A DNA stretch of 64,000 bases from an uncultured Planctomycetia bacterium (GCA_964572255.1 CAZNEE010000006.1:11775-75774); one strand, 5' to 3'. Positions 1 through 24,518 are shown, numbered from the stretch's first letter. A program made the numbers and translations. Notes: a model not told the origin generated them from the letters alone.

Positions 1-330
1 CTCATAACGATCCATAACCATATAATAATACGTTTTGCCATCTACTTCGTAAAAACCCGCTGTTCTGATCTTGGCCACTCCGTCAATATTTTGCGCTTTT
101 TCAGAGATCAGATATTCGTGAATAAACCGCGCCTTTTCTTTTGCTTCATATCTCGCTACCTCTTCCGGATTATTCCAATCTACAATACTTGCTGCGCCTT
201 TACTGGGGCTTAATACTTTCATTACGACAGGTCTGGTTACAACGAGCTCTCCTTCAGTTTCAGGTATTACTGCCTCATCTGCCATAAGGATGAAGCCAAA
301 ACCGCCGGCATCGATCAGGCCGCCGTCTGC
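1..330 (-). other. Second kinase-like (possibly pseudokinase) N-lobe in paralog A, truncated by the window edge.
   Basis: Translation shows LIDAGGFGFILMADEAV (Gly-rich loop-like), RPVVMKVLSP (the conserved Lys, as in VAIK) and NIDGVAKIRTAGFYEVDGKTYYYMVMDRYE, a typical beta4-beta5/hinge pattern. Confidence 0.45.
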
Positions 331-3300
331 CGCCCATTTTGCTCCTTTTACACCTGATGTTTTCGGAGCTATATAATATCTTAATCCCTCCCCGGGCTTT
401 TCAATAATATCCGGAACAGGCACTTTTTCTTTTCTATCGTCAGGCCCGCGTATATGTTTTTCATCGCCGATATCGCCCCTCTCTACTGAAATTTTAGACG
501 CAAATCTATCGGTTGCTTCTATTCCGTTTACTATTGCTCTTGCTTCTTCTACTGAAAGATTGCTTATAGCATCATTTGAAAGAGCTATCATCTCTTCGGC
601 AGAAAGTTCTCCAGGCGGAGCGCGGGCGTCTAAAAATCTTCCAAGGGCCTTGCCTAATGGGGTTTTTCTGGGCTGGCCGTCAAATGTATCTATATCAAAA
701 AAGTCTCCACGGCCAAAAACTTCAGTAGTAATACCAATTATTTCATAATGACTCAGTTTCGCTCTTTCCAATGCCTCGTGTAAAATATACTCATCGAGTA
801 AAATATTCTTCTTATCTTCGAGAGCATCGAGACGCTTCTTCTCGATTTTGAGAAGAAGCTCCTTCTTGGCGGATAATTCAGCATATAATCGTGCTTCCTC
901 CTCAGTAAAACCTGCTTCCCCCTCCTCACTAAGATATTCTATTATGTTCAGGGCAAGGCCGCTTTCGTAGCCTAAGAGATAGCTTTCTCTTGCTAAAACT
1001 TCTGCTTCAAACAAGATGAAGCTGCCTTCCGGATCATTTAAAGCATCTTCAACAATTCCAACTATCTCTTCAACTTCAGAAGCATCATACCCGTGTCCCC
1101 GAAGCAGTTCCTCAAGAACGCTTATCTTTTCATCTAACAATCTCTTGCGCCTTTCCTTAACTGCATCTGTTTGGTTCTTGTTTTTACTATCTTCCCAGGC
1201 TCCCTCACTATTTTCTTCAATTCTGTCTTTTACTTCGGGGTGTAATTCCCCTCTTGCATCTACAAACTCGACTCCCTTTGCGATAGTGCCGCCAATATCA
1301 GTCGGGCCTTCAGCTTCCCCGGGAAACAAATCATCAAGCGCTTTCCCAACATCTGCGCCTCTGGGTATTGCTGCCTCATCTTCGGCTTCTTCGGGAAGCA
1401 ACTCATCAAGAACTTTTACAACATCTGCAGAAGGCACTAAGTCCTCCACGAGCAGATAGTCTAAAACATCCTGGATCTGGCCTGGGGTTGGCACAGATTG
1501 AGGCTCATCCCATTCCAAGCTAACAAAAGGCGATTCCTCTTCTGTCATAAAGGCAATAGGCTCGCCTGGTTCGACATCAGCTTCTATATTAGCAAAAGGA
1601 GATTCTTCATCCCTCAATGTAAAGACAGGTTTTTGAGTTAAAATCTGTTTCATGCGTGAAAATTTCGCCTGCACAATATCGAGATCCCGATAACTCATTA
1701 GACCCATGCGCCGCAGAACTTCCTCTGCTGTCCCAAAACCGTTCCCGTTCTCATTAAGAAGCAGGCCCGCGATAAGAATATCGAATCCATTATTACTTTT
1801 CAGTAACTCATCTATCAGTTTTGCCCTTTCCTGGAACCATCTTGGCAGCTCTCTGCTTTTTGGCGTTTTCATATAAGGAAGTCTGCCGTAAAATAATTCG
1901 TACATGATCGTCCCTGCTGCGTACAGATCTGTTCTGAAATCATATTGTTTTGTTCTCATGGTCTCTAAAGGCATGTGTGCAACGGTTCCGGCTATACCTC
2001 CTTCAACGTCCATGTAAACCCGCCCTTCAGGCGCATACAATGAAATCCCGAAATCACTGACCTTTAAGGTTATTTGTCCGGTTACCGGATCACGTTTAAC
2101 AAATATATTATCCGGCTTAAGATCGGCGTGAATTATCCCGTTTTCGTGTAGAGTGACTACAATATTGAGGATCTGTCTTTCGAGGTCCATAAGTTGGTCA
2201 AATGTCAATCCTGCTCTTTGTCTGTATATCAGGTCCTGCAGGGTCCCTCCGTCCATGAATTCCTGTACCATGAAATGAAATGTCTTTTCCCCTTCCTGGT
2301 AGGTTCCTGCATTAAAGGCGTTCACCACAGCGGGATCACCATCCATCTTTCTCATCATCAAATATTCCTGAAAGAACCTTATCTGTTCACTTGCGTTAAG
2401 TTCAGGGTTCAGTATCTTCACTACCACTTCCCTGCCGACATTCTCGCCTTCAGCTTCAACAGCCTTAAAAATAGCACCCATTCCCCCTGAATTAATAAAT
2501 TCCTTTATCTCGTACCTCTTGCCTGCAACAGTAATTTCCGAGGGAGCCGTTAAAGGGATCCTCCCGTCGATGTTTCCTTCCAGTTGTTTGTTGCTGTAAT
2601 CAAATTCAACATTACTGTCAGGGAAAAAGCGTTTCCACTGCCGGTTTTGAAGTTGTTTTTCGGGAGAAATAAGTTTATCGAAAATCCTGTAACTCAATAA
2701 GCGGTCCATCCTTCTTTCAAGTCTCCTTGCTGTCCAATCGCGTTCTTCCGCCTGTTCCGCTTCCAAAGCCTTTCTTTCGCCCAACTTATCGAACTGAGCA
2801 AGGTCTACCGCTTCCAACGCAACTTCACCTGACCTGTTAAACCTTTCGAATAAATTTTCCATCCTCTGGTTAAGCTCATCGGAAAGACCATAATATGCGC
2901 CTATCTCATGGACTATTACTTTGACCTGTTCCTGGAGGGATAAATCTGCACTGACATGAACGCCTCTATGGCTGGCATGCCCCCTAAAGCCTACGATTCC
3001 TTCGGCTGAAAATATATTTATCTCGCCACTTACTATCGCATCTGCTATTCCCTCATATCCCATTGCCCTAAAAAATTTGACTATATCGGACTCTGCATTA
3101 AAAGCTAAAAGAGTCCTAACTGCAGTGGCTAACTGCGTATCGATAATCGCTTCATGATCCTCGTATGTGAAGTTGTCGGTACTTGTGATCTTGACATCGG
3201 CTAAAGCATCACTTACGCCTCTTTCAAGAGAATATGTAACTGTGCCGTCTTCCATTGAAAACTTGATACCGGTAGTTGAGCCTTCAAGAGTTACAAAAGC

Positions 3301-5049
3301 GTCTTCGCCTTCAACCAGTTTCTTGGCGATCTCGACCATTATCTCCGCCTCGTTCACGGCCGCTTCACCGTCAGCAGCTAAACCGAGCCTGTTCCACATA
3401 CTTGCAACCTGCATGGTTGAGCGTGATACCGCTTCGGTCAGCAAAGTTCCAAGACCGCTCCTTTCCCCTGCCAGTATCTTAAAGTAAGGAGATTCGTACC
3501 CTTCTTCGCTCCTGAAAGTAGGAAGTATTGAAATGTGCGAGATGCCTTTTTTCTCCAGAAGCTCGCAGATATTTTCTGTATGGAAACCCCCGGTAATAAG
3601 AATAGCTATCTGCATACCGCCTCTGGGCTCTTTTGCTCCGACGCTTGCGAACCTGATATTATCCAGAAAGACATCATCGCGCTTGAAAGAATAATCGAAA
3701 AACTTCTCTATGCGTCCGCGGTAATAATCGAGTTCCCGTATGTTCCTGTCCGGCCTTGCAGTTATCTTATGGTAGGGAGCTTCTTTTTCGATGAAGGACG
3801 TGAAATTGCTGACATCGAAATCGGATCTATTCTTCTGATAATAAATATAATCGTCTTTAGAAAGCTTTAAATTGAATATATTTTTAGTGATCACCAGATC
3901 TTTTGAAAGCCTATCGAGCTCCTTCTGTTTCTCGTTCTGGAAGATGATCTCCTTGATATCGGCTTCCAATGCGTCAAGCTCGCTTATAACTTTTGTCTTA
4001 TCGACAGCTCCGTAGAGCGAAACATAAATGATATATTTTCTGAGTTCCGGGTAGTCTTCCAGGCTGATATTCACGATCTTTGCTTTCTTGACGAGTTCTT
4101 CATAATATTCACGCTGCGGGATCATTTTAGCTTCGAACTCTAAAGTTTTAGCGACAAGATCTTTTAGTTCTCTCTGTGAAAGCTTGTTTTTCAAAAGATC
4201 AACAAGTTCATCCCTTTCAATATTCGCTTTTTTGAAATTTATCTTGGTTTCCTCTTCGAGGGACTGCTTCAGCAGGTATATGTTCGTATATGATTTAACA
4301 TCGATGGCTTTTTCCTTTGCCTTGCTGATCATGTATGTGAGGTAATCCTTAAACTCTATCCTCTCAGCTTTATATTGGGTGTATACTTCGTCGATATCTC
4401 TTAGTTCGTCGCTGAATATACGTCTTTTCAAATTGTTTATGATATGAGTAAGCTCGTTTAAATACTTATCCACCTTTTCCTTATAGGTGAGAGATTCACG
4501 ATAGATTTTCAGGTTATCAAGATACAGCTTTTCATTTTCGACGCCCCAGAGCGACACATCATCAGAATTATTAAGGGCAAAATATTCGGCCGCGTTAACC
4601 AGTCCCTGCCCCACAAAGAAATCCCCGACCTTATCACGAAGAGTTTTATTTTCAATTTCGGTAAAAGGGGACAGGTCATAACTGCCTACACCTCCTTCAA
4701 GATTGATCATGCTAACGCCGTATTCTTTGTTTAAATGCTGGATAATATTTGAAATTTGTTTTTGAGCATCGTAATTGCAATGGGCATCCTGTATATGGAT
4801 CAACAGTTTATTCGGATCGCCCTTAAAAGAATGTCTGACGAGACCCATGTCATGAGGAAGATTGAATGTCTCCGGATCGATGGGAGAAAATCCTTCCCTG
4901 GAAGAGGCGGCCAGATCATAAGATATTCCCGGAACATCTACCGCGCCCCAGGCATTGCCGGAGACCATGCTTAAGGTAAAAAATACCGTTAAAAGGCAGC
5001 TGACTGTCTTTTTCGCCAGACCATGTCTCTCCCAAGTTAGATGTATCAT
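1..5049 (-). CDS. Giant secreted protein, paralog A. Signal peptide, then the conserved ~600 aa N-module shared with paralogs B and C, then a Ser/Thr kinase, acidic repeats and a second kinase-like domain. The 3' end lies beyond the window (more than 1683 codons).
   Basis: The ATG at 5049..5047 is preceded by AAGAGGTGGAAG. The manual translation starts MIHLTWERHGLAKKTVSCLLTVFFTLSMVSGNAWGA, then ...LLIHIQDAHCNYDAQKQISNIIQHLNKEYGVSMINLEGGVGSYDL... and ...ILITGGFHTENICELLEKKGI...EEGYESPYFKILAG...ASMWN. These match the N-termini of ORFs 5305..19329 and 19693..23454. No minus-strand stop codon is present in this frame down to base 1, consistent with no complete minus-strand ORF being listed in the track for this region. 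Confidence 0.8.
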   Translation of the reverse strand, partial: MIHLTWERHGLAKKTVSCLLTVFFTLSMVSGNAWGAVDVPGISYDLAASSREGFSPIDPETFNLPHDMGLVRHSFKGDPNKLLIHIQDAHCNYDAQKQISNIIQHLNKEYGVSMINLEGGVGSYDLSPFTEIENKTLRDKVGDFFVGQGLVNAAEYFALNNSDDVSLWGVENEKLYLDNLKIYRESLTYKEKVDKYLNELTHIINNLKRRIFSDELRDIDEVYTQYKAERIEFKDYLTYMISKAKEKAIDVKSYTNIYLLKQSLEEETKINFKKANIERDELVDLLKNKLSQRELKDLVAKTLEFEAKMIPQREYYEELVKKAKIVNISLEDYPELRKYIIYVSLYGAVDKTKVISELDALEADIKEIIFQNEKQKELDRLSKDLVITKNIFNLKLSKDDYIYYQKNRSDFDVSNFTSFIEKEAPYHKITARPDRNIRELDYYRGRIEKFFDYSFKRDDVFLDNIRFASVGAKEPRGGMQIAILITGGFHTENICELLEKKGISHISILPTFRSEEGYESPYFKILAGERSGLGTLLTEAVSRSTMQVASMWNRLGLAADGEAAVNEAEIMVEIAKKLVEGEDAFVTLEGSTTGIKFSMEDGTVTYSLERGVSDALADVKITSTDNFTYEDHEAIIDTQLATAVRTLLAFNAESDIVKFFRAMGYEGIADAIVSGEINIFSAEGIVGFRGHASHRGVHVSADLSLQEQVKVIVHEIGAYYGLSDELNQRMENLFERFNRSGEVALEAVDLAQFDKLGERKALEAEQAEERDWTARRLERRMDRLLSYRIFDKLISPEKQLQNRQWKRFFPDSNVEFDYSNKQLEGNIDGRIPLTAPSEITVAGKRYEIKEFINSGGMGAIFKAVEAEGENVGREVVVKILNPELNASEQIRFFQEYLMMRKMDGDPAVVNAFNAGTYQEGEKTFHFMVQEFMDGGTLQDLIYRQRAGLTFDQLMDLERQILNIVVTLHENGIIHADLKPDNIFVKRDPVTGQITLKVSDFGISLYAPEGRVYMDVEGGIAGTVAHMPLETMRTKQYDFRTDLYAAGTIMYELFYGRLPYMKTPKSRELPRWFQERAKLIDELLKSNNGFDILIAGLLLNENGNGFGTAEEVLRRMGLMSYRDLDIVQAKFSRMKQILTQKPVFTLRDEESPFANIEADVEPGEPIAFMTEEESPFVSLEWDEPQSVPTPGQIQDVLDYLLVEDLVPSADVVKVLDELLPEEAEDEAAIPRGADVGKALDDLFPGEAEGPTDIGGTIAKGVEFVDARGELHPEVKDRIEENSEGAWEDSKNKNQTDAVKERRKRLLDEKISVLEELLRGHGYDASEVEEIVGIVEDALNDPEGSFILFEAEVLARESYLLGYESGLALNIIEYLSEEGEAGFTEEEARLYAELSAKKELLLKIEKKRLDALEDKKNILLDEYILHEALERAKLSHYEIIGITTEVFGRGDFFDIDTFDGQPRKTPLGKALGRFLDARAPPGELSAEEMIALSNDAISNLSVEEARAIVNGIEATDRFASKISVERGDIGDEKHIRGPDDRKEKVPVPDIIEKPGEGLRYYIAPKTSGVKGAKWAADGGLIDAGGFGFILMADEAVIPETEGELVVTRPVVMKVLSPSKGAASIVDWNNPEEVARYEAKEKARFIHEYLISEKAQNIDGVAKIRTAGFYEVDGKTYYYMVMDRYE
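1300..1620 (-). repeat. Acidic tandem peptide repeats in paralog A: ~22 aa units ADVVKVLDELLPEEAEDE and ADVGKALDDLFPGEAEGP, plus EESPF-x-E-D motifs.
   Basis: Manual translation gives DEESPFANIEADVEPGE, EEESPFVSLEWDEPQ, ADVVKVLDELLPEEAEDEAAIPRG and ADVGKALDDLFPGEAEGP. Confidence 0.55.
1830..2515 (-). other. Hanks-type (eukaryotic-like) Ser/Thr protein kinase domain within paralog A. It is a non-RD kinase with catalytic loop HADLKPDN.
   Basis: Manual translation shows YEIKEFINSGGMGAIFKA (Gly loop), VVVKIL (the conserved Lys, as in VAIK), MVQEFMDGGTLQDLI (hinge), IIHADLKPDNIF (catalytic loop) and VSDFGIS (DFG). It also shows GTVAHMPLE (activation segment) and DLYAAGTIMYELFYGRLPY. Confidence 0.8.
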
Positions 5050-5202
5050 CTTCCACCTCTTACGGCACAAATATACTTTTAAAAACATTATAATAATTAG
5101 GCAAAAAAAAATACGCAGGACACACTTTATGCCCTGATAAATAGCCCCTCTTCTAATTATTATAACGTACGCGCTAATACCTTACTTTACTCTACTATAA
5201 TT

Positions 5203-5255
5203 ATTATACCCCACTTTTCCCTAATATGCCAAAAAATCAAGCTAAATTTTGTGTG
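5203..5255 (-). promoter_or_regulatory. Putative promoter of paralog A. Conserved box B (5233..5255) abuts a -35 TTGGCA (5232..5227), an 18 nt spacer and a -10 TATAAT (5208..5203).
   Basis: The gene-sense sequence is AAGTCACACAAAATTTAGCTTGATTTT-TTGGCA-N18-TATAAT. The same architecture lies at the same distance (~150-200 nt) upstream of paralogs B and C. A T9-GCC box A sits at ~5093-5110. Confidence 0.5.
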
Positions 5256-5304
5256 ACTTAATTTTTGTAAGTTTATTAATTTGAATAGCTTATAGAAACA
5301 AAAA

Positions 5305-17300: not shown

Positions 17301-19329
17301 CGAGACCCATCAAGACAGGTATGCCCGCGATAAGCATAGCTCTAAGGCTTTCACCAAACCGAATAGCCGGACCTTCTTCAGACACTTCTTCAACCTTAGC
17401 AATAGCAGGAGCTTCCTCTGCCGGAGGAGCTGCTTCCGGTAAAGGCAATCCCGGCGCTATCTGCGTAACATTTGCTAAAGCAAATGTTCCTAAATCTTCT
17501 GGGGTTAATTTTTCTATATCTTCAGTTTGAATCCTTCTTCCTTCTGAATCTAAAATGCCCAGAGTCTCATCCCCAAGCTTCACGAGAAGTCCTTTTTGGC
17601 CTGATTCAACTGCAGCTTTCCACTTAACATGGAGATCAAAGATGGCCTTCTTTTTTGCGCCATCTGGAATATCTTCCCCCAATTCATTCAGCATACTTGC
17701 AATGGCCAACTGAAATCCCAGAACTTCAGCGAACCGTGCCTCTATCTGAACAGGTTTTCCGGCTAAAAGATCAAAATAAGGACATTCATATCCTTCTTCT
17801 ATTCTGAACTTTGGTATGATTGAGATGTGCGATATGCCCTCTTCTCTTAAAAGGCTGCATAAGTTTCCCGTATGGAATCCGCCGCTCATAAGAACTGCGA
17901 TCTGCATCTTGTGGTCCTTAGCTTGCGACCACTTAAGATTTTTCATAAAAACTTCATCTCTCATGAAAGAATATTCATAGAATTTTGAAATGTCTTCACG
18001 GTAGTCATCTAGTCTTTCTATGCCAGAGCTTGGCCTCGCCGCTATCCTGTACTTAGGAGCTTCTCTATCGATAAAACGCATATAGTTATCCATCTCAAAA
18101 GAAGCATCGTTTTTGAGGTAATACTCATAATCGGATTTGGTAAGTGAAATTGAAAAGATATTTTTCGCCAGCGCCAAGTTGCGTGAGAGAACATCAAGTT
18201 CCCTTTGCGTATCATTACGGAAGAGTTTCTCTCTTATTGCTTTTTCGATATTATCGATCTCTTCTGAAACTTTATCTTGATCAACCGATTCATAAGTGGA
18301 CACATATTCAAGATAATTTACTAGAGCTGAGAAGCGATTAACATCTAACCCTAATTCACGGGCATCCTTTAAGAGGTGCTCATAAAACTCTCTTCTTGAA
18401 CACATCCCAGTCTTAAAATCTATTGTCTTTTTGACGAGCCTGTTTATCTCAGACTTAGATAGGCCCTTTCTAAGTTCATCTATAAGCTGGCCCTTTTCAA
18501 TATCGGCTTTCTTAAAATCTACCTTATCTTCGATTTCTACTGTCCTGCATAATAGATGCAGGTTAGGAAACTCCTCTACCAGTATCTTTCTCTTCTCAGC
18601 CTGGTGAGTTAAAAACTCAAGATATTCCTTAAACTCGATATTCTCTTTCTTGTATGCGCTGTAAGCCGTGTCCACCCTAAGAAGCTCTTTTGTAAATATA
18701 TGTCTTTTAAGATTGTTCAGAATATGGGTGAGTTCCTTAAGATACTTATCGACTTCTTCTTTGTAAGAAAGAGAATCCTGATAAACTTTGAGATTTTTTA
18801 AGTAAAGTTCCCTATCCTCCACGCCCCAGATAGTAACCTTATCGGGATTGTTTACCGCAAAAAATTCTGCTCCGTTCAACTGCCCGTTTTTAACAAAGTA
18901 GCTTGATGTTTCTTTGCGCACACCTTCATCCAAAATAGAAGTAAAAACTTCAAGATCATAACTTCCCACGCCTCCCTCGAGGTTTACCATTTCTATTCCA
19001 TATTCTTCATTCAGGTAACCGATGATTTCGGCTATCTTTTGCTGAGCAAAACAATTGGCATGTGCGTCCTGTATGTGTATTATGAATTTATCGGAAGTGC
19101 CCCTGTAGGAACCTTTTATTTTTCCCAGATGTGCCGGCAGATTGAATGTCTCAACATCAAGAACTGCGTATCTCTTCGCCTCAGGGAAAGAAACATCCCG
19201 AGCATCAAGAACCGCCCATGCGTCATTGAACACATATGTGCACATAAAAACTACAGTCACTGCCAGACTGATAGCTTTTACTAAGATCCTGTGCCCCTTT
19301 ATCCACGTATTCATTTCACTTCCCACCAC
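5305..19329 (-). CDS. Giant multi-domain membrane protein, paralog B (4674 aa). It has a signal peptide, the conserved N-module, TM helices with an HExxH, HEAT-like repeats, a CPBP intramembrane protease domain, a GH-A glycosidase domain, a second HExxH and a minimal nucleotidyltransferase domain.
   Basis: A single uninterrupted 14,025 nt ORF. The N-terminus MVGSEMNTWIKGHRILVKAISLAVTVVFMCTYVFNDAWA looks like a signal peptide. The N-module motifs IIHIQDAHANCFAQQKIAEII, NLEGGVGSYDL, LMSGGFHTGNLC and PKFRIEEGYECPYFDLLAG are shared with the other two paralogs. Confidence 0.85.
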   Translation of the reverse strand: MVGSEMNTWIKGHRILVKAISLAVTVVFMCTYVFNDAWAVLDARDVSFPEAKRYAVLDVETFNLPAHLGKIKGSYRGTSDKFIIHIQDAHANCFAQQKIAEIIGYLNEEYGIEMVNLEGGVGSYDLEVFTSILDEGVRKETSSYFVKNGQLNGAEFFAVNNPDKVTIWGVEDRELYLKNLKVYQDSLSYKEEVDKYLKELTHILNNLKRHIFTKELLRVDTAYSAYKKENIEFKEYLEFLTHQAEKRKILVEEFPNLHLLCRTVEIEDKVDFKKADIEKGQLIDELRKGLSKSEINRLVKKTIDFKTGMCSRREFYEHLLKDARELGLDVNRFSALVNYLEYVSTYESVDQDKVSEEIDNIEKAIREKLFRNDTQRELDVLSRNLALAKNIFSISLTKSDYEYYLKNDASFEMDNYMRFIDREAPKYRIAARPSSGIERLDDYREDISKFYEYSFMRDEVFMKNLKWSQAKDHKMQIAVLMSGGFHTGNLCSLLREEGISHISIIPKFRIEEGYECPYFDLLAGKPVQIEARFAEVLGFQLAIASMLNELGEDIPDGAKKKAIFDLHVKWKAAVESGQKGLLVKLGDETLGILDSEGRRIQTEDIEKLTPEDLGTFALANVTQIAPGLPLPEAAPPAEEAPAIAKVEEVSEEGPAIRFGESLRAMLIAGIPVLMGLALTFFTGVALTIAQAVILFFVFLVFKPYRGMEVEAVFEPLARGITLLALLGMIVAGANLLVPLASPFFLNLLYIWAIPSMLRTLIVHRRMREQSGDEETRILTPEDTLADAIDKFGRNMGPVVFLHELVHRIFLRRYTGITGTYSILGARPGGRVLEEVLAYSVEYVFAPFIILGSALYYVVRDSFRGLIRLVRGPPRVIPGRSSFLAASILRDLGFTEVPQSGITLKYAFSGSSRMEGLIDEMVVADANYPFILERIFTLIEELQKNEVYKATLEQEKEKYKSFADALESQRRDFVYTIGEPRKEPIISKEDRLEPLVDGIINVTDRLRERIWISSFLFALADKGVITEANIPQVKALINTVNAVIPGRITPAFQGIAYEALTALAEAGAITQDNITHIKNVFIVIADNTDAYTGAAFTALRDLAKAGKITKDNIDRLRALLTMRSTDEEEIVQDVAKIGRREDRPLEASHRSGNISGLVERQKAGIRIREDFMLGARRRLGIGYENIVPANINIAPELIAAFNFPEIQPIGEFGALEEPVEPELPMVQPMVPFGVQQPHGGLLVLDPMIAIMIVAVIIKTILGDTLKFYGNIFKRIGGFFYSIYLEVRHLITSPSIGKTYAKGFWSDAYPALARLGETGNPLLADPRLISDIVKAAKRNTDAACSALIALNNTIGVTEENIKKIKAFITAISKRADRPTGRDELEIEKARFLGELEETEYPDIIEQAKKEDTIRIAYKDLVLALERAKGKGISLDFDALIDITKGTGIHAGAAYLAYVALAEAGISPKKTRDILVTVARRAGYATVNAYSMLEKLARGGVVTEDNIDWVRDFSVTTGKKTPKDPKTRLALYSVLDIMAENGLVNKDNIEEIWSLLFSTIFEEAGVGAEAAYSALEAMVRVRMVTIDNMKKVQDLFSVIGSKTTERAIKASLASKYASEKWLLQRDLEAPYHALKALAEVSTGDNIDEIRNFLSEIPDEIDYDYLNIIYEAIINMTVDVSRERVLPRAELLPAIIIYYQGFLKPLLAEVKEGREYLQKKGYLTQFSESVRLYLSSMKFDNTDEFLQECKDIMILLARTSINMNLCLDSLKLLKLRIKDVRELISALPYSNALTRVIRMLGERSGFVGGHSDLIEVLRSAGNFNYLYDIILEIAQKKGRGAPVEIEGVLRILEEYREEGIIEEWDKEEWEAFRNDIALYYDKGLEVFSATLFSYFREHKDDDEKIESLRKDIQEEMAPFKTAWGSFKGLSEEFKRKYGLTPLDEVILIARYIPILNLTVSDYQEMYEKVRKALEEKPDYSDEIDPALRGVYKFDYGRASQTRYSEESGAVQEKQILLDELEPFFAEEIPLSEADEDNVLEYFLSVFIEQAGDTDSFRTLPDNLSSQEEYLRRWAQVLNAVYLDEVSYLDKTKEEIREILIGQISSLSGEDTEKLVERFVKVRFMPIEDIKRIFTPDSDFYKAVKENDTGALRNLIIMKWFSRISSSSLEDEDALRDWFQRGKGKFCRKVAKETGMDLEEVVPVMDKAFEEALADLRVNPPYSDAERRSGLLLPSIISLAEKKAKALSGRVGGVLDGFEVTSSQLENAYYVGLFDDLLHLMEFMMTGVCTWRNRAYQIKEGPHFSVIALKTGDGKLLGTSQVQILKTPVKGIDNPTSEKGYRVMALTGINLYQKGIPVEREKAFFSIIEAASRLAKKANVIPVIPANRGIRSNDPIVNKLIDELVNKGILEKRRLTEETELSVSPKYSYEEVYVINLPEEGFFLEETSLAEIRESMEEKEKRVAEKPIIVDDFIELSHEGRLTDEEAQMLSERISGVVAKFPQDVAENVKLSSQIFDISLRITVDPAVETSKIEKREVDGKPVIRLTIGGDIIYAKGKIETLTLSEMLSELFVASMLDDYNELKETKNTNENSFFKLELMKALINNENHLPLYYKSNVTALKSWTVPNYWEGISSEEKINMLKQSQQKLDGYIAGLKYNDIFQWNIFLNVMDDANPEVMATNYIHLLLSDPFMTQEEISKIIYLIQDLSVSDKVSLASLRNALKEFYFDGRVKIEAKRKEYEAAEKDFTDKFADFDNTDRFLRIKNTLLTTEDRDEFYKTFGELLKMILPLSTAAVNKEIRLLFDKDIFLLSEDARGEAIKAAIRDMLMRRLGRRAFSALAEHLTAKRGDKNIPYISMLEGELPEGGDADEYDFLREEEEDWVKKLFLMSSEKKPPTEPEEPFGFATTEWLEKWLDKRMPWMPQWVRRLVIAPLVEEPLYRGLPLLFASLIGSLVMGSFMGPSLVILIALFLQIPAAVLFVSHHKGIKAAPFVVSLINFVILMSVTSNPWAFMALAILSHSVINLGSKVTAAVSTFIFLLFVPISEVSAVDFIEEIISPDFVVRTYDNGDVATYNVVGEDSYINTLHEADGTRTVYDYDASWSLEETIVYTTDGGIVSIYPDETTKEWTPGQEFIRGVNLAWVRYGYDFGQGANGETYEGLATKKNQLYQKLEPWKGCTVRVFIFCDLRSGIIFDVDGTPLDINSQVYDDMDTLLEAAHALGINILPVLFDKTLADGVVSQYEGEHQDLITDPVKRSALFDLMGQFVSRYAEKIEIWDFMNEPSDVAKKTSITDGEVDTFVSEGIEMVHANDPGSTVTVGLNGADNVDRYTGVDSEQLHVYPGMSPPQYPDDAIPTGSSYFHGELDPGYFSDPTFANVIGIVYENGSSGALIWQDASYYITAEQIDFIRHWKETEVWTAPEERKVSSGCAVANWGSSAGTPILVPWFVAVMVIMIGRGQLRRRRYNATHMTPEGIVRGTAQGTSETLTSKGIVKRPVTVVKPETLAGGMIPEDLGRRAREEEAQWSIDYLKLTGMYYQVEIIREAISGDPGKLAEFNRLLELEGIYPTEELFKGIPKPGEKLFALDVLKQEDSIESLNIQIGENVTLDELFNLIINYSHVSEALSPEVAKFVRNMLDGRKSILKIRRVMEEAMNGQYKDKDDIETRIDEMVIGKEKFDTEEEIIVYTLEKQKDKFEAHKLIALISTLRLQVFPDDAQVITVETGEKTTLGELRQIGVLVPKYTASGTESVNSINVVTKDARGQAKVLEVSFVDTRIQEKPPAEMPPLANFWLFTDGELHVSEDEIFGDEGRIEALAWQIETERIIPNFYSLPVEINGVKVQIYIHKKVFERIQAQNMTLQGFIDRCIEIRGPKYQEKLKETLSKKKYLIVDALRQSPALYGNCKDDGYFGYMYMNIDADAPIEMDLIGFSHELMHEAGIYKELYDEMPAEEAKRKEEALLAEQDMQIMLDRGLNPVEIIEKLMPNIRTTLFMQKAFEGIVGSALGASVLSAIAETPQFDKILRGVIRDEIAKRMRLAEAKEDETTIVTREEVEETTVVTREEVKEEPVASDEELLRQIQIDLSYELYEFRPTRVASPEDEKVYDINTDRDEILKMMEEFNWYFRSYSADDKKAFEERTFGSFTEDIVERIKDFAVAQAKEAGLEIEKDDILAVITYGSYCWAEAVEPSDMDLAVVLKGSVPQSKRHFLGIPIKNPEEWFKGRRVEKSDMRLIGIEDLLKDPSQKDNDTLDFETAVQGHGVLLYGMNILRSPPLAHNLLVKLRQLIANAIMYSRGTVIGKKVYEDGTEVFAGLEPKDHLRKVERRVDEVERIFREAFSERHLGRIDREKAVRDITMAADTVDEIKSKIYELLEEREREGMSVSHEDVKALHVELEPLFDRLLRLSDSDDVQGGLVALEFDRRKELAAVPEAEETIVIALEEPAEEKKEIVDERIGTGRNALTDLRQNKMDIIILPGSDIYVAYQEDINRKSARKFRKDFGQETLPYGYDFKNLEPSLARLIKERILPAFYKSEDKDPRILFELPEGVDLRNIFERADLLEDYEKIKDLITVVTVENIPENGMIDNVMHIILSKGLLNYERFEKGVFGEGTRQGSEELKHLVDFLETLVEPGSIDFAKYAGNPRELINSILTGSIALRIRAIDFTDIEDWKDAREAVLISL
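6700..6830 (-). other. Minimal nucleotidyltransferase (pol-beta-like NTase / MNT) motif near the C-terminus of paralog B.
   Basis: Translation shows DILAVITYGSYCWAEAVEPSDMDLAVVLKGS. This matches the hG[GS]-x9-13-D-h-D-h NTase signature, with GS followed by SDMDL. Confidence 0.5.
7158..7223 (-). repeat. Perfect-to-near-perfect 33 nt tandem direct repeat inside paralog B, encoding EETT(I/V)VTREEV twice.
   Basis: cttcttcgcgggttacgacagttgtttcctcaa is followed immediately by cttcttcgcgggttacaatagttgtttcatctt. Confidence 0.7.
7541..7555 (-). other. Second HExxH motif (IGFSHELMHEAG) in a soluble part of paralog B. It could be an ImmA/IrrE-like or other zincin.
   Basis: Translation shows MNIDADAPIEMDLIGFSHELMHEAGIYKE. 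Confidence 0.4.
9000..9950 (-). other. Clan GH-A (TIM-barrel, GH5/mannanase-like) glycoside hydrolase domain inside paralog B.
   Basis: Translation shows GVNLAWVRYGYDFG, HALGINILPVLFD, IEIWDFMNEP (the NEP acid/base motif) and VIGIVYENGSSG (a candidate nucleophile Glu). A TM segment ILVPWFVAVMVIMIGRGQLRRRRY follows at ~8940-9010. Confidence 0.55.
10200..10580 (-). other. CPBP (CAAX-protease/bacteriocin-processing, Abi-like) intramembrane metalloprotease domain inside paralog B.
   Basis: Manual translation shows all three CPBP motifs embedded in hydrophobic helices. Motif 1 is EExxxR (RRLVIAPLVEEPLYRGLPLL). Motif 2 is FxxxH (AAVLFVSHHKG). Motif 3 is HxxxN (LAILSHSVINLG). Confidence 0.6.
14470..16290 (-). 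repeat. HEAT-like helical repeats (~35 aa units) in paralog B, with consensus A[YF]xAL..LA.AG.IT.DNI..I..
   Basis: Recurring units include AYEALTALAEAGAITQDNITHIKNVF, AFTALRDLAKAGKITKDNIDRLRALL and AYLAYVALAEAGISPKKTRDILVTV. Others are AYSMLEKLARGGVVTEDNIDWVRDF, LYSVLDIMAENGLVNKDNIEEIWSLL and AYSALEAMVRVRMVTIDNMKKVQDLF. Confidence 0.6.
16912..16926 (-). other. HExxH zinc-metallopeptidase motif (VVFLHELVHRIF) immediately after a cluster of 3-4 TM helices in paralog B.
   Basis: Manual translation of the minus strand gives MGPVVFLHELVHRIFLRRY. The preceding ~100 aa are hydrophobic (AMLIAGIPVLMGLALTFFTGVALTIAQAVILFFVFLVF...LLALLGMIVAGANLLVPL...). Confidence 0.45.
17650..19329 (-). other. Conserved N-terminal module (~560-600 aa) of paralog B. 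It is shared by all three paralogs and I do not recognise the family.
   Basis: The three N-termini align by eye. Shared elements are the ETF-LP-HLG, IHIQDAHAN, NLEGGVG-YDL, NGAEFFA-NNP, LKVY-DSL-YK-EVDKYLKEL and NLKRHI blocks. Further shared elements are IEF-EYLEFL, DFKT, YVST-E-VD, FI-EAPK-RI-ARPS, SFMRDEVF-KN-K, GGFHT-NLC and PKF-EGYE-PYF-LLAG. Confidence 0.7.
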
Positions 19330-19486
19330 GAAATTAACCTTTATAAATTACTTTAATAAATGCGCAAAAAAAATTTACATTTTCGATGCTAATATATATT
19401 TACATAGCCCGCAAAAATATAGATATACTTCTACCTTCAAGTTAAAGGAAAAGTATAAGTTTAATGTAACTTTACTCTCATTTACA

Positions 19487-19540
19487 AGTATACATTGCAT
19501 ACATGGGGGTGACCAAAAAAATAAGCTAGATTTTGTGTGC
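19487..19540 (-). promoter_or_regulatory. Putative promoter of paralog B. Box B (19515..19540) abuts a -35 TTGGTC (19516..19511), an 18 nt spacer and a -10 TATACT (19492..19487).
   Basis: The gene-sense sequence is GCACACAAAATCTAGCTTATTTT-TTTGGTC-N18-TATACT. Box A (TTTTTTTTGCGC) sits at ~19355-19375. Confidence 0.5.
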
Positions 19541-19549
19541 TTTAACAGT

Positions 19550-19588
19550 CCGCCCCGAACCAGGGGAGAATCCCCCGATCCGGGGCGG
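19550..19588. promoter_or_regulatory. GC-rich nested stem-loop immediately upstream (gene-sense) of box B of paralog B. It is not followed by a T-tract on either strand.
   Basis: The outer stem is CCGCCCCG...CGGGGCGG, enclosing an inner hairpin AGGGGAGAATCCCC. Its GC richness contrasts with the AT-rich spacer around it. Confidence 0.4.
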
Positions 19589-19692
19589 CATGAGTGTTAG
19601 GAAATACTCGAGAACAGATCTAATTATAGATCACCTTCCAAGTTCCCATAGCTTTCCTCTTTAGTATATCCGTTCCAGATCTGGATATAACA

Positions 19693-22600
19693 TTATAATG
19701 CACGCAGTACTGCCAAGCGTGCTTTTCTGAATTCTCTAAGTTCTTCGTAATCTATCTTCTTTATCTTAAACACTTCTATCCCGGACATGAATCTTTTAAG
19801 ATCCTGCCAGCCCAGTTGTTCAAACTTCTCCATGTCCCCACTTAATAGTCCAAAATAATCCAAAGCCATCCTTACCAGCGATGGGACATCCCCCACCCTG
19901 TCCAATTCAGCCAATATTACACCGAGCTCCATCAAAAGGTCGTGTTCAAGCCACTGGCCCGGCTCGAGTTTTTCATGTCTTATGACAGCCGCTACATCAG
20001 GATCTTTAACATAGTTAGCAGCTTCCTCCGGGGTCATGGTCTCATCGTCAATAATTACAAGTCTCGGATTTAAATTGTTCTCTTGAGCTTCTCTGAATGC
20101 CTCCCAGTTCTTGGCTTCGGCTGAAGCTTCTGCCCTGCTTTCAGTATCGCCTTCCCTGAAAAAGAACACTTTTACATTAACGCCTATTTCCCGCATCAAA
20201 ATACCCGAAGCTTTAGTGGCAATTCCTTTGTGTGTAGATATCTCCAGATCATACTGATCGGCGGGAAGTCCCACTACCAGCGCTGTCGGCGGAAGGTTTC
20301 TTGGTACGTGATCTTTAAAATCGCGTTCCTGAGCGATCTCCAGTTTCTGCTGGACAAAATTATAGAACTTGTTGCCCGGATCCGAAACATGTTCCGGTTC
20401 CAGATTTTCCAGCTCGGGACCCGTCATAACAAGATCGCCAAAAAACCTGTTAAGTTCTGTCAGCGCATCATAATCGTTATCTATCATCTCAAGATGCTTC
20501 ACCATTGCGTGTTCCAGTCTAAAATTTTCGCTCGCCTCCAGCTGTTCAGCCCTTAAAGCATTTACAAGTATGATATCCTTCTCGAGATACCCTTCACTTA
20601 AAGGCCTTATGGGATTGTTATTAAGAAATACAACGAGCGTATCTTCTTCAACGAAACTCTGCGCTGTTGCCACATAACCCAGATCTACTTCATAGATCTT
20701 GACCTCCTTTATTTGATATTCGGGGTTTTGCAGCCTCTCGACCAGATCCCTGGCCATCGCCTCGTCTATCCCAACTTTTTGAAGCCTTTCGATGACTTCT
20801 GCGCTGGAATACTCAGGAAACCCCTCATTTAAAGCTACCTCAAGTTTTTGTCCCATTCTTACGATCAGCTCATTTGCCCTGTCAATCACTGCCTCTATTC
20901 TTTCCTCTTCTACATCAACAGGCTTGGCCACCCCGGTATCCCTCAAGTCTTTCAGCTGATCTCGGGTTAACCTCGTCGCGATATCGATGCCCGGGATTTT
21001 GTCGGCCACTGCTTCCTTAGAAAGACGCTCGGCGGTTTCGAGCTGATCCTCAAAACTCTTAAATAGATCTCTTCTTCCCGCCAGGGCTTCGCGTTCTTCG
21101 GGCGTGCTCTCCGCCAAAGATTTTTCCCGGAGCGGAGTCTCGCGCAATTTTTCGGCCAGCTGCACATATTCGTTAGATTCACCCATGGCTATATGTTCCA
21201 CCAGCCTGCTCAAAGCATCATCATATGTGAAGTTCCCCACAGCCCCATGAATGATATGCCGCACTATTCTTTCCTCGTTTATTGTCCCGTCCTTATTCAA
21301 GACAGTAGCTTTATTTATCTGTATGCCCTTACCTCCGGGATGTTCACCGAATAATATCGGCATCTCCCCTTCAGTGATCAGGAAAATTCCCTTGGTCACG
21401 CCTTCTTCCACCCAAACCCCATCGCGTAAATTTTCCAACATCCCTATCACTCTATCGAATTCCCCCGCTTGATCGCCGAGCTGATTTTGCAGATCCTGCA
21501 ATCTTGTTATTGCTACATTTATATGTACATCCCCGACATTTTCTCTGCCGGCGGCAGCTTCGATGCTTGCGTCTACCTGTTCCTGGTGCACGAATTCTAT
21601 CACATCTTCAGCCGTCAAAGTTATTGACGGATCATCTTTCTTCGGCATCAGACCAAAAGCTTCATTTATATCCACAAAGTATTCGCCTTCTGCATCGGCG
21701 TATTTAAGCCCTATATTATATCCGCGCGCGACAAGTTCCCTCATCATTACAGCCACTTTAAAAGCATCAGTACCTGTTCTTCCCCACACTTCTTCCGCCA
21801 GCCCCTTAGATAAGTGGCTCGCTACCTGCAGCATCGAAGCCTGCGCGATAACTGAACCTAAAATGCTCTGGAGCGAGGTTGTCTCCCCGGCCAACAGTTG
21901 AAAATAAGGACTTTCATATCCTTTAGCGCTTTTGAACTTAGGCATTACCGATACATATGAAACGCCTTTTTCTTCAAATAAGCGGCACAAGTTCTCAGTA
22001 TGAAATCCGCCCGTCATAAGGATCGCCGCTTCCATACCGCCCGGAATGCGGCTGTATTTCATGTTTTTGAGGAACACTTCATCCCTCATAAAGGAGAAAT
22101 CAAAAAACTTGGCAAGATCGTCCCTGTAAATATCCAGCCTGAAAATACTCTCGCTGGGCCTTGCCATTATCCTGTGTTTGGGAGCTTCTTTCTGTATAAA
22201 AGAGATAAAATTCTGTGCATCGAACGAACCTTTATTGTCCAGGTAATACTGATAATCCGTGCGGTTGAGTCTTATATCAAAAATGTTATTTAAAAGGATG
22301 AGGTTTTTCGACAAAAGACTCAGCGTGCGCTGTTCCTGGCTTGTGAAAACATCCTCTTTTATCACGCTTTCCAGATCATCCATCTCTTCTATCAGTTTGA
22401 AGCGGTCAACGGCTTCAAACGTGGAAACATAATCTATATAATTCCCCAGAGTCGGGAATTTTTTAATATCGATCCTGCTGCTTTCAGCCAGATCAAAAAG
22501 ATAATTATAAAACGCTTTTGAGGATATCTTTCTTGTCTTGAAATCAAGTGTTTTAGCGACAATATCTCTTATGGTCGCCCTTGAAGACTTTGCCTTAAGT

Positions 22601-23454
22601 TCATCTATGAGCATATTCCTTTCATCATTCGCTTTCTTGAAATCGACCAGCGCTTCCTTCTCCATCGACTGTTCAAGAAGATGAATATTCGGAAAATCCT
22701 CTATCTTTATACCGTGAGACCCCGCTGCTTCGATCAAAAACTCAAGGTATTCCCTGAACTCGATACTCTTGGTCTTATAAGCGCCGTAATTCATATCGAT
22801 CTTCAACAGCTCCGCATCATAAATGTGGCGTTTTAAATTATCGATAATATGGGAAAGTTCCTTCAGATATTTGTCTACCTCATCTTTATACTTCAGGGAA
22901 TCCCTGTACACTTTAAGGTTTGCCAAATAAAGGTTGCGGTCTTCAATCCCCCAAAGTTCGATCCTGCCGGGATTATTAGCGGCAAAGAACTCCGCCCCGT
23001 TGATCTCGCCCTTCTTAAGGAAATAATCAGCCACTTCCCGTCGTATCGCGCCGCCGGTGATGTTAGTGAATATAGAGAGATCATACTCGCCGACACCTCC
23101 CTCTAAATTGACCATTTTTACGCCGTATTCATTACTTAGATATTCGATGATACTCGCGATCTTGCTCTGAGCGTAATGGTTCGCGTGGGCATCCTGAATG
23201 TGGATAATAATACGACCGGGATCACCGGTAGATGAATATTTCACTTCACCCAGATGAGACGGCAATGTAAAAGTCTCGACACCGAGATTAGCAAAAGCCG
23301 GCAGTCCTTGATCAGCAATACCGACATCAAATTCTTCGGATTCGATCACTGCCTTGGAATCGGTCAGGATGAAAAATGAGAAAAAAGTAACCGTTAGAAT
23401 AGAACAGATCACTTTTTTCGTCCTTCTGTGTTTCAAAATATATTTGGCAAACAT
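19693..23454 (-). CDS. Giant-family paralog C (1253 aa). It has a signal peptide and the conserved N-module, followed by ~650 aa of unknown function.
   Basis: An uninterrupted ORF. The N-terminus MFAKYILKHRRTKKVICSILTVTFFSFFILTDSKA looks like a signal anchor. The N-module motifs IIIHIQDAHANHYAQSKIASIIEYL, NLEGGVGEYDL, LMTGGFHTENLC and PKFKSAKGYESPYFQLLAG are shared. The RBS is GGAGGT. Confidence 0.85.
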   Translation of the reverse strand: MFAKYILKHRRTKKVICSILTVTFFSFFILTDSKAVIESEEFDVGIADQGLPAFANLGVETFTLPSHLGEVKYSSTGDPGRIIIHIQDAHANHYAQSKIASIIEYLSNEYGVKMVNLEGGVGEYDLSIFTNITGGAIRREVADYFLKKGEINGAEFFAANNPGRIELWGIEDRNLYLANLKVYRDSLKYKDEVDKYLKELSHIIDNLKRHIYDAELLKIDMNYGAYKTKSIEFREYLEFLIEAAGSHGIKIEDFPNIHLLEQSMEKEALVDFKKANDERNMLIDELKAKSSRATIRDIVAKTLDFKTRKISSKAFYNYLFDLAESSRIDIKKFPTLGNYIDYVSTFEAVDRFKLIEEMDDLESVIKEDVFTSQEQRTLSLLSKNLILLNNIFDIRLNRTDYQYYLDNKGSFDAQNFISFIQKEAPKHRIMARPSESIFRLDIYRDDLAKFFDFSFMRDEVFLKNMKYSRIPGGMEAAILMTGGFHTENLCRLFEEKGVSYVSVMPKFKSAKGYESPYFQLLAGETTSLQSILGSVIAQASMLQVASHLSKGLAEEVWGRTGTDAFKVAVMMRELVARGYNIGLKYADAEGEYFVDINEAFGLMPKKDDPSITLTAEDVIEFVHQEQVDASIEAAAGRENVGDVHINVAITRLQDLQNQLGDQAGEFDRVIGMLENLRDGVWVEEGVTKGIFLITEGEMPILFGEHPGGKGIQINKATVLNKDGTINEERIVRHIIHGAVGNFTYDDALSRLVEHIAMGESNEYVQLAEKLRETPLREKSLAESTPEEREALAGRRDLFKSFEDQLETAERLSKEAVADKIPGIDIATRLTRDQLKDLRDTGVAKPVDVEEERIEAVIDRANELIVRMGQKLEVALNEGFPEYSSAEVIERLQKVGIDEAMARDLVERLQNPEYQIKEVKIYEVDLGYVATAQSFVEEDTLVVFLNNNPIRPLSEGYLEKDIILVNALRAEQLEASENFRLEHAMVKHLEMIDNDYDALTELNRFFGDLVMTGPELENLEPEHVSDPGNKFYNFVQQKLEIAQERDFKDHVPRNLPPTALVVGLPADQYDLEISTHKGIATKASGILMREIGVNVKVFFFREGDTESRAEASAEAKNWEAFREAQENNLNPRLVIIDDETMTPEEAANYVKDPDVAAVIRHEKLEPGQWLEHDLLMELGVILAELDRVGDVPSLVRMALDYFGLLSGDMEKFEQLGWQDLKRFMSGIEVFKIKKIDYEELREFRKARLAVLRAL

Positions 23455-23615
23455 GATATTACCTCCATTTTACAGTCTTTATAAAAGACCTAAATTATTA
23501 GGCAAAAAAAATTCTTTCTTCATCCTGCCATAGGACAAAGAAACATACACTCTTATCCACTATTCCTAATAAATAAGAATAATAAAATTATAACTTTACA
23601 TACATTTACAATTTT

Positions 23616-23668
23616 AGTATACCCTATATACAGAGAATAGACCATAAAATCAAGCTAAATTTTGTATG
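23616..23668 (-). promoter_or_regulatory. Putative promoter of paralog C. Box B (23647..23668) abuts a -35 ATGGTC (23645..23640), an 18 nt spacer and a -10 TATACT (23621..23616).
   Basis: The gene-sense sequence is GGCATACAAAATTTAGCTTGATTTT-ATGGTC-N18-TATACT. Box A (TTTTTTTTGCCTAAT) sits at ~23497-23515. Confidence 0.5.
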
Positions 23669-23803
23669 CCTTAACTATTGGTGCCTTATTTCCCGTCCAA
23701 ATCTATTTATATATATAGGAATCATAAAGATTTATGCCATAATGTAAAAAATAATTGCAATTTTTATTTTTTTTGAAATCTTTTTTGTAACTAGTGATAT
23801 TTA

Positions 23804-23990: not shown

Positions 23991-24188
23991 ATGCAAGGAG
24001 TAGTCAAATGGTTCAATAACTCAAAGGGTTACGGGTTTATTACTCCTGAATCAGGCAGCGATGTATTCGTACATTTCAGCGCGATCCAGGGTGAAGGCTA
24101 CAAATCCCTAAAAGAAGGAGACAAAGTCGAATTCGAAGTTAAAGATGGAGCCAAAGGTAAAGAAGCCATAAACGTAGTTAGAGTATAA
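23991..24188 (+). CDS. cspA: Cold-shock protein, CspA family (65 aa).
   Basis: [50 protein letters not shown] contains the RNP1 and RNP2 motifs (KGYGFI, VFVHF). The RBS is AAAGGAGG. Confidence 0.9.
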
Positions 24189-24260: not shown

Positions 24261-24518
24261 TTAATCTCTGTAAACTTCCCTTCGATGCATCACTTTTAAA
24301 ATAAAAATACAGATTTTCTTATTGTCTATTTCATAGACAATACGGTAGTTGCCAGCCCTAAAAGAATATAATCCCTTAAGTTGAGCTTTTAAGGCTTTGC
24401 CAATAAGAGGATTAGAGGCTATTTCCAGGATAGCGCTTCCTATTTTCTCTTTTATTTTTTGAGGAAGTCTATCAATTTGCTTTTTCGCTTTGGAAGTTAT
24501 TAAGATATGATAATTCAC
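24261..24518 (-). CDS. relE: RelE/ParE-family toxin (85 aa).
   Basis: It is small and basic. LKGLYSFRAGNYRIVYEIDNKKICIFILKVMHRREVY is typical of RelE/StbE. It overlaps the upstream antitoxin gene by 4 nt. Confidence 0.7.
   Translation of the reverse strand: MNYHILITSKAKKQIDRLPQKIKEKIGSAILEIASNPLIGKALKAQLKGLYSFRAGNYRIVYEIDNKKICIFILKVMHRREVYRD

Follow-up and report, generated by a model that had tools for sequence, protein, structure and literature searches.

A conserved head and a conserved tail frame variable middles in three tandem giant genes and their Omnitrophota relatives

What unites three giant neighbouring genes whose products begin alike and then differ, and what might such proteins do? 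We asked this of A, B and C, tandem genes in a 64,000-nucleotide (nt) stretch of DNA from an uncultured Planctomycetia bacterium (GCA_964572255.1, CAZNEE010000006.1:11775-75774), hereafter the window. An earlier note on this DNA had described them as co-oriented genes that share an N-terminal module and then 'diverge completely', a layout of constant N-terminus and variable C-terminus. They are indeed co-oriented, on the minus strand, which the note had left unstated, and their open reading frames (ORFs) are intact. Because the C-terminus is constant as well, the layout is one of constant head, variable middle and constant tail; the tail is found in all three proteins, and A and C have a second module in common. 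The explanation we favour, and hold to be just on the likely side of even, is that A, B and C are exported scaffolds in which a constant, predicted hydrolase head and a constant tail enclose variable cargo.

Head and tail in the three proteins and their relatives

The first ~555 amino acids (aa) of A, B and C are co-linear and 45-52% identical, and BLASTP pairs the N-termini with E values of 4e-165 (A/C), 7e-157 (A/B) and 7e-178 (B/C). The shared module is therefore real and measures ~510 aa (coordinates of all features are given in Table 1). Each of the motif blocks listed in the earlier note is present: IHIQDAHxN, NLEGGVGxYDL, NLKRxI, SFxRDxVF, GGFHTxNxC, PxFxxxxGYExPYFxxLAG and ASM. In front of the head, each protein has a net-positive stretch followed by a hydrophobic helix, often with an AWA-type site, and a strong hydrophobic 15-mer occurs in 139 of 148 N-termini of the family. 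Such N-termini would suit a Sec-type signal peptide or signal anchor, in line with the signal peptides that had been proposed.

BLAST among A, B and C finds nothing shared beyond the head, whereas profile searches based on the wider family do. We traced the tail with an iterated local hidden Markov model (HMM) and an exhaustive profile search of 1.84 billion representatives, which returned 307 clusters; almost all of the matches listed place the end of the tail at the protein's last residue or a few residues before it, in proteins of up to 7165 aa. A word-indexed protein search with the tail of B returned a single identical fragment of 212 aa. The tail is a Rossmann-like alpha/beta module of ~250 aa with one invariant Arg and no obvious catalytic set. 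In B it ends at the last residue of the protein, is 44-48% identical to the C-termini of two relatives of 887-888 aa (P0004 and P0005), and is modelled by AlphaFold2 (AF2) with a pLDDT (predicted local distance difference test) of 83.6. C carries a divergent copy: a profile built without C matches only its last 33 aa, and an independent BLAST search aligns its last ~210 aa with the C-termini of P0015, P0025, P0016 and P0010. A runs out of the window. A public gene call gives it a full length of 3381 aa, and in locus L082 its tail begins at aa 3118 (E 1e-13), where the first half is seen; the L082 DNA stops 133 aa short of A's end, which is the length needed for the rest of the tail. B and C have both the head right after a signal-peptide-like N-terminus and a terminal tail. 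For A, the window contains the head, and L082 adds the first half of the tail, placed where a protein of 3381 aa should have it.

If the array were a polymorphic-effector system, with the N-terminal module as its one constant part and entire, unrelated C-terminal architectures exchanged behind it, then the ends of the proteins should differ. Such a reading, which fits the shared head, the very different middles and the tandem paralogs, now appears very unlikely, as the tail is found in all three proteins, A and C also share the second module, and the variable part is internal, not terminal. The spacers between the genes (255 nt for B-A, 363 nt for C-B) hold no ORF of at least 120 aa on the coding strand and no immunity-like gene. 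The note had called the layout the reverse of polymorphic toxins; the term does not apply, because those toxins are themselves constant at the N-terminus and variable at the C-terminus. Like A, B and C, polymorphic toxins (Rhs/YD, CDI, MafB) are large exported proteins with a conserved N-terminal part, encoded by multicopy tandem genes. Theirs is a short variable toxin tip at the C-terminus, followed by an immunity gene, whereas in the head-tail family the C-terminus is conserved and the internal variable part reaches several thousand amino acids (kaa); we found no variable toxin at the C-terminal tip and, in the two spacers, no immunity gene immediately downstream.

The head search brought up more than 200 relatives, nearly all in metagenome-assembled genomes of Candidatus Omnitrophota and all annotated as hypothetical, and at least 558 head-encoding stretches are present in GTDB species genomes. 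We kept 77 loci, labelled either Omnitrophota or generically 'uncultured Planctomycetia', several genomes giving two or three loci. These hold 88 ORFs with a head, which starts at aa ~42-120 of the stop-to-stop ORF, contig-end fragments excepted. The 49 complete ORFs span 821-3560 aa, and several incomplete ones exceed 3,900 aa. A tail is present in 34 of the 49, of which 31 end exactly with it, and four more complete ORFs have a tail-bearing ORF directly after them. Approached from the other end, 54 of the 85 tail-bearing proteins of at least 800 aa have the head at their N-terminus, and most of the remainder appear to be truncated gene calls or the latter parts of genes that have been split. 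Ten of the 77 loci contain tandem pairs. The array of A, B and C, which we assign to an uncultured Omnitrophota bacterium, is not a peculiarity of one genome but an example of a multicopy family found across the phylum; judging by these searches the family is specific or nearly specific to Omnitrophota.

Members range from 0.8 to 7.2 kaa. Many are minimal, with ~887-970 aa comprising a head, a short linker (~100 aa) and a tail; since they consist of nothing else, head and tail would supply a constant function. The closest head-plus-tail relatives of B span 887 to 4720 aa, the shortest of them (P0004) being 57% identical to B in the head and 48% in the tail, and gain or loss of sequence therefore takes place in the linker that joins head and tail. 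Head part and tail part are adjacent same-frame genes in L039 (Ca. Omnitrophus magneticus; 541-3003 / 3007-7806) and in L072 (4578-10082 / 10086-10844), with a junction of TAA, an 18-nt purine-rich spacer and ATG in both. By Rosetta-stone logic, this split suggests that head and tail work together. Co-variation of head and tail similarity was erratic in small sets (Spearman -0.27, 0.24 and 0.80 for A, B and C) and is not used as evidence. Around the family genes, the conserved neighbours are for the most part housekeeping genes that share synteny, and they include no secretion system.

Could such long ORFs be mis-assemblies, fused gene calls or pseudogenes? Some relatives are indeed split by frameshifts (L032 and L054), in place of the clean junctions of L039 and L072. 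We nevertheless give this explanation next to no credence. Independent ENA, JGI and Logan assemblies each contain this contig, with identical proteins (10 contigs for C, 9 for B), so the long ORFs are not an assembly artefact; they run uninterrupted for 1253, 4674 and more than 3248 codons at ~42% GC, and residue-level conservation is strong over hundreds of relatives. That none of the three is a pseudogene agrees with what the sequence alone had suggested.

A second family of signal-peptide-bearing proteins is the most frequent neighbour of the head-and-tail genes, occurring on the same strand in 12 loci (L003 6670-9294, L005 7065-9680, L059 1207-3831 and nine others). Its ten complete copies are 716-1803 aa long and lie upstream of the head-and-tail genes, immediately so in most cases. 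This family's final ~90 aa (...LPI.PVN.EE.R.IYE.A.E.LIRA) can be aligned over their whole length, though weakly, with the closing ~90 aa of the tail (hmmsearch E 4.8e-5; hhalign E 4.8e-4, probability 32%). A common end of this kind would fit a C-terminal localisation or sorting element, a suggestion as weak as the alignment.

Predicted fold and invariant residues of the head

The earlier note had left the choice between a secretion, delivery or anchoring domain and a common enzymatic head. We modelled the head of C. The AF2 model, based on an alignment of 43 sequences (pLDDT 85.8; predicted template modelling score 0.75), has an N-terminal hydrophobic helix and a disordered stretch before an alpha/beta core with strands at residues 69-88, 114-124, 166-170, 475-482 and 498-505. 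An all-helical insertion at 173-464 (~290 aa) splits this core. The predicted fold, a central parallel beta-sheet flanked by helices, is that of TIKI, ChaN and the erythromycin esterases. The known structures set beside it, each given with its accession and the value recorded for the comparison, were ChaN (2g5g; 8.1), the erythromycin-esterase-like Bcr135/136 (2qgm, 2rad; 7.8), HopBA1 (5t09; 7.7), EreC (6xcq; 7.4), a TraB-family protein (8bqs; 6.8) and the MARTX effector RRSP (5w6l; 6.7). The paper on the RRSP structure unites these same proteins as the TIKI superfamily (PMC6254334).

If the head is an enzyme of this kind, then its catalytic-type residues should be kept across the family. In the model, D88-A-H90 follows strand 1, E118 stands at the end of strand 2, R457-D458 lies in a helix and GGFH485 follows a late strand. 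Across 197 distinct heads that are 30-60% identical overall, no exception occurs at H90, E118, R457, D458 or GGFH485, and D88 and Q87 are kept in 196. Such a set, invariant across divergent heads, is what an active enzyme would show. RRSP has a 2His/2Glu catalytic set (E3900-x-H3902, E3930 and H4030), and Bcr135 a catalytic pair, His85 and Glu113, 28 residues apart (PMC6254334). The spacing of H90 and E118 is likewise 28, equal to that of H85/E113 in Bcr135 and of H3902/E3930 in RRSP. By eye, E. coli YbaP (TraB/GumN) has matching motifs in GSIH41, VE67, R228-N and GALH252.

The head thus resembles the TIKI/TraB-PrgY-GumN/ChaN/EreA-Bcr135 superfamily, which includes RRSP and the type III effector HopBA1, in its predicted parallel-sheet alpha/beta core and in the order of its motifs: an acid or Gly-x-His after strand 1; after strand 2, and 26-28 residues further on, a Glu; an Arg-[Asp/Asn] within a helix; and a G-x-x-His after a late strand. 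Superfamily members, too, mostly lie outside the cytoplasm, preceded by a signal peptide or membrane anchor, and often have extra domains appended or inserted. The head differs from them in that its core is split by the helical insertion, its first motif reads Q-D-A-H where theirs reads G-T/S-x-H, and it is always N-terminal in a much larger protein that also bears a dedicated C-terminal module. It also has no detectable similarity to PF01963, to any other Pfam family or to a PDB chain, so that sequence and profile searches with member families such as PF01963 do not place it in the superfamily. From fold and motif layout in the model, the head is probably homologous to the TIKI/ChaN/Ere superfamily, and probably a new, very divergent, phylum-wide branch of the TIKI/TraB/ChaN/erythromycin-esterase superfamily.

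Of the two options, the predicted fold and the (nearly) invariant His/Asp/Glu/Arg/His set favour a common enzymatic head. The alternative is a head without catalytic activity, a binding, anchoring or cofactor domain whose His residues would bind a metal or cofactor. The superfamily does contain such non-enzymes, namely the haem-binding ChaN and the inactive PMT C1/C2, which is without the catalytic set (PMC6254334). We regard this alternative as distinctly unlikely, given that the acid-x-His/Glu/Arg/G-x-x-His set is so nearly invariant in sequences as diverse as the 197 heads and that the His-Glu spacing equals that of the catalytic pairs in Bcr135 and RRSP.

The variable middle and what the proteins may do

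What, then, lies between head and tail? A and C share a second module of ~120 aa, which jackhmmer detects in ~50 members of the family in a matching position, ~100 aa beyond the head. Its pattern is HxGGxGIxI...HE...DH...VWxM...RD[FY], in which the Gly, His and Arg-Asp are invariant and the second His and the Glu nearly so. Profile comparison gives sub-threshold zincin-like hints only (Peptidase_M78 E 0.016, Zincin_1 E 0.03). Beyond this module, A has the tandem Ser/Thr kinases that had been proposed: one domain is complete in the window, the window edge cuts the start of another, and the full-length gene lists the second Pkinase match. The precomputed Pfam list for A names kinase-type families only (Pkinase and related). 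Outside the window (L082 24266-34010, aa ~2050-2200), a GGDEF-like stretch, SGEEAGDEIVCVLPG, was noticed in A by eye alone.

B is a polytopic membrane protein with ~11 hydrophobic segments in a hydropathy scan. The protease, glycosidase and nucleotidyltransferase mosaic ascribed to it held up in part. The glycosidase is supported by a match to a GH5 beta-mannanase-like structure (PDB 4oou, E 4.5e-8), with PF00150 (E 3.7e-4) falling below the Pfam cutoff, and judging by its core motif B probably carries a Pol-beta-type nucleotidyltransferase (PF18765 at 23.9 bits, against a cutoff of 26.9). For the protease there are only HExxH motifs and a weak zincin match (E 0.021), the latter in the first of two transmembrane clusters. 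The second cluster is 38-40% identical to the middles of P0002 and P0036 and has no Pfam match. Between the clusters, at aa ~880-2880 (window ~10690-16692), B has a long helical region of recurring '...A[FY].AL..LA.AG.IT.DNI..' segments, with weak, sub-threshold matches to phage tape-measure proteins (PF06791, E 7.8e-4); it may be a repeat scaffold. Among relatives, most of the inserted sequence is without a Pfam match, with RNHCP and GNAT domains in one of the five proteins tested, and database annotations list GGDEF and CPBP domains in other members.

Omnitrophota are ultra-small, uncultured, host-dependent bacteria noted for very large proteins. In the explanation we favour, the N-terminus would act as a Sec-type signal peptide or signal anchor, and the head would be an active hydrolase, a peptidase or esterase working through His/Glu-activated water, with its helical insertion possibly serving as a lid. 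The linker, from ~100 aa to more than 6 kaa, is a hotspot at which lineage-specific arrays are inserted: in A these are kinases, and in B they comprise transmembrane bundles, a GH5 glycosidase and a probable nucleotidyltransferase. The tail would have a role in localisation, assembly or docking. After export to the cell envelope or cell surface of these ultra-small, host-dependent bacteria, the protein would present whatever its array provides, so that the inserted arrays may diversify what the scaffold offers to a partner cell or the environment. We prefer a scaffold over a pure delivery vehicle because cargo-less members are common and B is membrane-embedded.

Several points weigh against this explanation. 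Kinase, GGDEF-like and nucleotidyltransferase cargo normally needs cytoplasmic nucleotides and is hard to reconcile with export, except if the proteins enter another cell or the N-terminal helix does not serve as a Sec signal. In B, hydropathy gives only an approximate count of membrane passes from head to tail. The superfamily assignment of the head is one of fold and motif layout only, with residue equivalences drawn from sequence position and secondary structure, and the superfamily has the non-enzyme members named above. As the earlier note had anticipated in finding the module impossible to place in a family, neither the whole head nor its core, with the helical insert removed, has a Pfam or NCBIfam match at E <= 10, and profiles of either match no PDB sequence. 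In hhalign, the head core compared with a YbaP (TraB/GumN) alignment reached a probability of 2.4%, the alignment being a shallow one whose members are at least 65% identical. A Foldseek comparison of the head with the PDB gave nothing significant, only coiled-coil and helical noise from the insert; Bcr135 and EreC stood no higher than ranks 13 and 23, with probability <0.3.

Could the proteins be delivery vehicles after the manner of MARTX toxins, their own head and tail serving to export the central enzymes, translocate them into a host or prey cell and set them free there, with the TIKI-like head cutting the polyprotein as the cysteine protease domain does in MARTX toxins? Both families have very large proteins in which conserved ends flank a variable central enzyme array, and cytoplasmic-type cargo (kinases, nucleotidyltransferase) stands behind a signal peptide in A and B; delivery with self-processing would explain nucleotide-dependent enzymes in such a place. 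One MARTX effector, RRSP, has the TIKI fold, and the TIKI superfamily holds site-specific endopeptidases such as RRSP and TIKI (PMC6254334). N-terminal C39 and S8 peptidases have been proposed as processing enzymes of giant proteins in Omnitrophota (10.1101/2023.11.21.568195), and the last ~90 aa of the tail apparently recur in the second neighbouring family, as a sorting signal would. Even so, we find delivery of this kind doubtful. Many minimal members, at 887-970 aa, carry no cargo, and B is polytopic in the membrane rather than a soluble toxin; cargo-less forms and polytopic membrane proteins both set the family apart from MARTX. The ends of MARTX toxins consist of glycine-rich repeats, their export is by type I secretion without an N-terminal Sec-type signal peptide, and they are processed by a cysteine protease activated by inositol hexakisphosphate. 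Pfam reports no glycine-rich A/B/C repeats, no cysteine protease domain (Peptidase_C80) and no type I secretion genes in A, B, C and their neighbours in the window, and there are no known cleavage sites. The bookend architecture with its insertion hotspot is MARTX-like in outline, with none of the parts that define MARTX.

Type I secretion was also considered as a route for A, B and C themselves, and rejected: the N-terminus carries a signal-peptide-like stretch.

A more specific proposal is that head and tail form a dedicated, phylum-specific system for export, anchoring or processing, in which the tail, or its last ~90 aa, would be a new C-terminal sorting domain and the TIKI-like head its maturation protease. 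We consider this rather unlikely. If it were true, any inserted enzyme array could be displayed on, or delivered from, episymbiotic or predatory nanobacteria, and a general mechanism would stand behind the large and giant modular proteins of the phylum.

The locus, its neighbours and the wider family of giant proteins

Table 1. Features of A, B and C and their coordinates in the 64,000-nt window
Feature	Position	Strand	Basis or remark
Paralog A	1..5049	-	1683 codons visible; rest beyond window start
A head, aa ~53-561	3367..4887	-	Family-profile hmmsearch E 3e-217
A module 2 (H-x-GG-x-GI-x-I ... HE ... RD), aa 660-800	2650..3072	-	jackhmmer
A first Ser/Thr kinase domain, aa 846-1067	1849..2514	-	PF00069 E 6.6e-33
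A second kinase domain, start, aa ~1590-1683	1..282	-	Gly-rich loop GGFGF, VMKVL; cut by window edge
Promoter-like site TTGGCA-18-TATAAT, 11 of 12	5203..5232	-	Upstream of A in B-A spacer; consensus scan only
Paralog B	5305..19329	-	4674 aa from GTG
B head, aa ~53-554	17668..19173	-	hmmsearch E 2.6e-220
B first transmembrane cluster with HELVH, aa ~663-858	16756..17343	-	Hydropathy; weak DUF3267 zincin match E 0.021
B second transmembrane cluster with EEPLYR, aa ~2890-3040	10210..10662	-	CPBP-protease-like by eye
B GH5 beta-mannanase-like region, aa ~3127-3291	9457..9951	-	PDB 4oou E 4.5e-8
B Pol-beta-type nucleotidyltransferase core motif (probable), aa ~4162-4196	6742..6846	-	PF18765 E 4.7e-5
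B tail, aa ~4425-4674	5308..6057	-	hmmsearch E 7e-58
Paralog C	19693..23454	-	1253 aa
C head, aa ~54-559	21778..23295	-	Sequence used for structure model
C module 2, aa 700-816	21007..21357	-	jackhmmer E 2.8e-20
C tail, divergent copy, aa ~1011-1253	19696..20424	-	hmmsearch E 9e-36; profile includes C

Public assemblies start B at the ATG at 19314, giving 4669 aa. In the B-A spacer, a terminator-like hairpin with a T-run (5116-5136, minus strand) follows the promoter-like site and precedes A's start codon; it may mark a leader or attenuator, or have arisen by chance. Upstream of C lie a cold-shock protein gene (23991-24188, plus strand) and a Phd/YefM-ParE type II toxin-antitoxin pair (24261-24796, minus strand), in an AT-rich stretch of GC 0.34-0.38. 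These genes and that of a small membrane protein lie between C and a fourth large gene, D (25590-37820, minus strand), which encodes 4076 aa. The protein has a hydrophobic segment at its N-terminus, and degenerate YD-like repeats (Y.Y[DE]..G.L) occur in it by the dozen. D has no match in Pfam at E <= 1e-3, and it lacks both head and tail. Directly downstream of it, a 135-aa protein with ~4 hydrophobic segments and no Pfam match is encoded at 25080-25487 (minus strand), and the start of D overlaps the end of an upstream carbon-nitrogen-hydrolase gene (37813-39264) by 8 nt. The remainder of the window is chromosomal housekeeping: fatty-acid synthesis, Pta/AckA, RecG, RecJ, SecDF, Tgt/QueA and RuvABC.

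How do these proteins relate to the giant proteins already described from Omnitrophota? The 'Archaeovorin' and 'Dockerin-type' giants (West-Roberts et al. 2023; Nielsen & Lui 2026) come from the same phylum and likewise combine signal peptides and transmembrane architectures with a mosaic of enzyme domains, mostly divergent or unannotated, and an N-terminal region 'without identifiable domains'; a role at the interface with host or prey has been proposed for them. They are defined as proteins of at least 10 kaa, or genes above 90 kb, with SecA_DEAD, C39/S8 or dockerin/TSP3 domains (West-Roberts et al. 2023; Nielsen & Lui 2026). Head-tail proteins reach 0.8-7 kaa against more than 10-30 kaa for those giants, and A, B and C lack their SecA_DEAD, C39, S8 and dockerin domains. 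At 3381, 4674 and 1253 aa, and with none of the defining domains in Pfam, the three do not belong to that class. The two preprints on the giants and the phylum-wide study make no mention of the head, the tail or a TIKI/TraB relationship, and a full-text search for literature linking Omnitrophota with TraB or GumN returned nothing relevant.

In published work, the large proteins of Omnitrophota are poorly conserved and mostly unannotated (PMC10066038; 10.1101/2023.11.21.568195). The head-tail family offers a conserved handle on them: a predicted hydrolase head with invariant residues, a tail that marks the C-terminus and a defined insertion hotspot. With this handle, a part of the dark protein sequence of the phylum becomes classifiable and testable, and relatives of 0.9-7 kaa built on one scaffold form a natural series for how long multidomain proteins grow.

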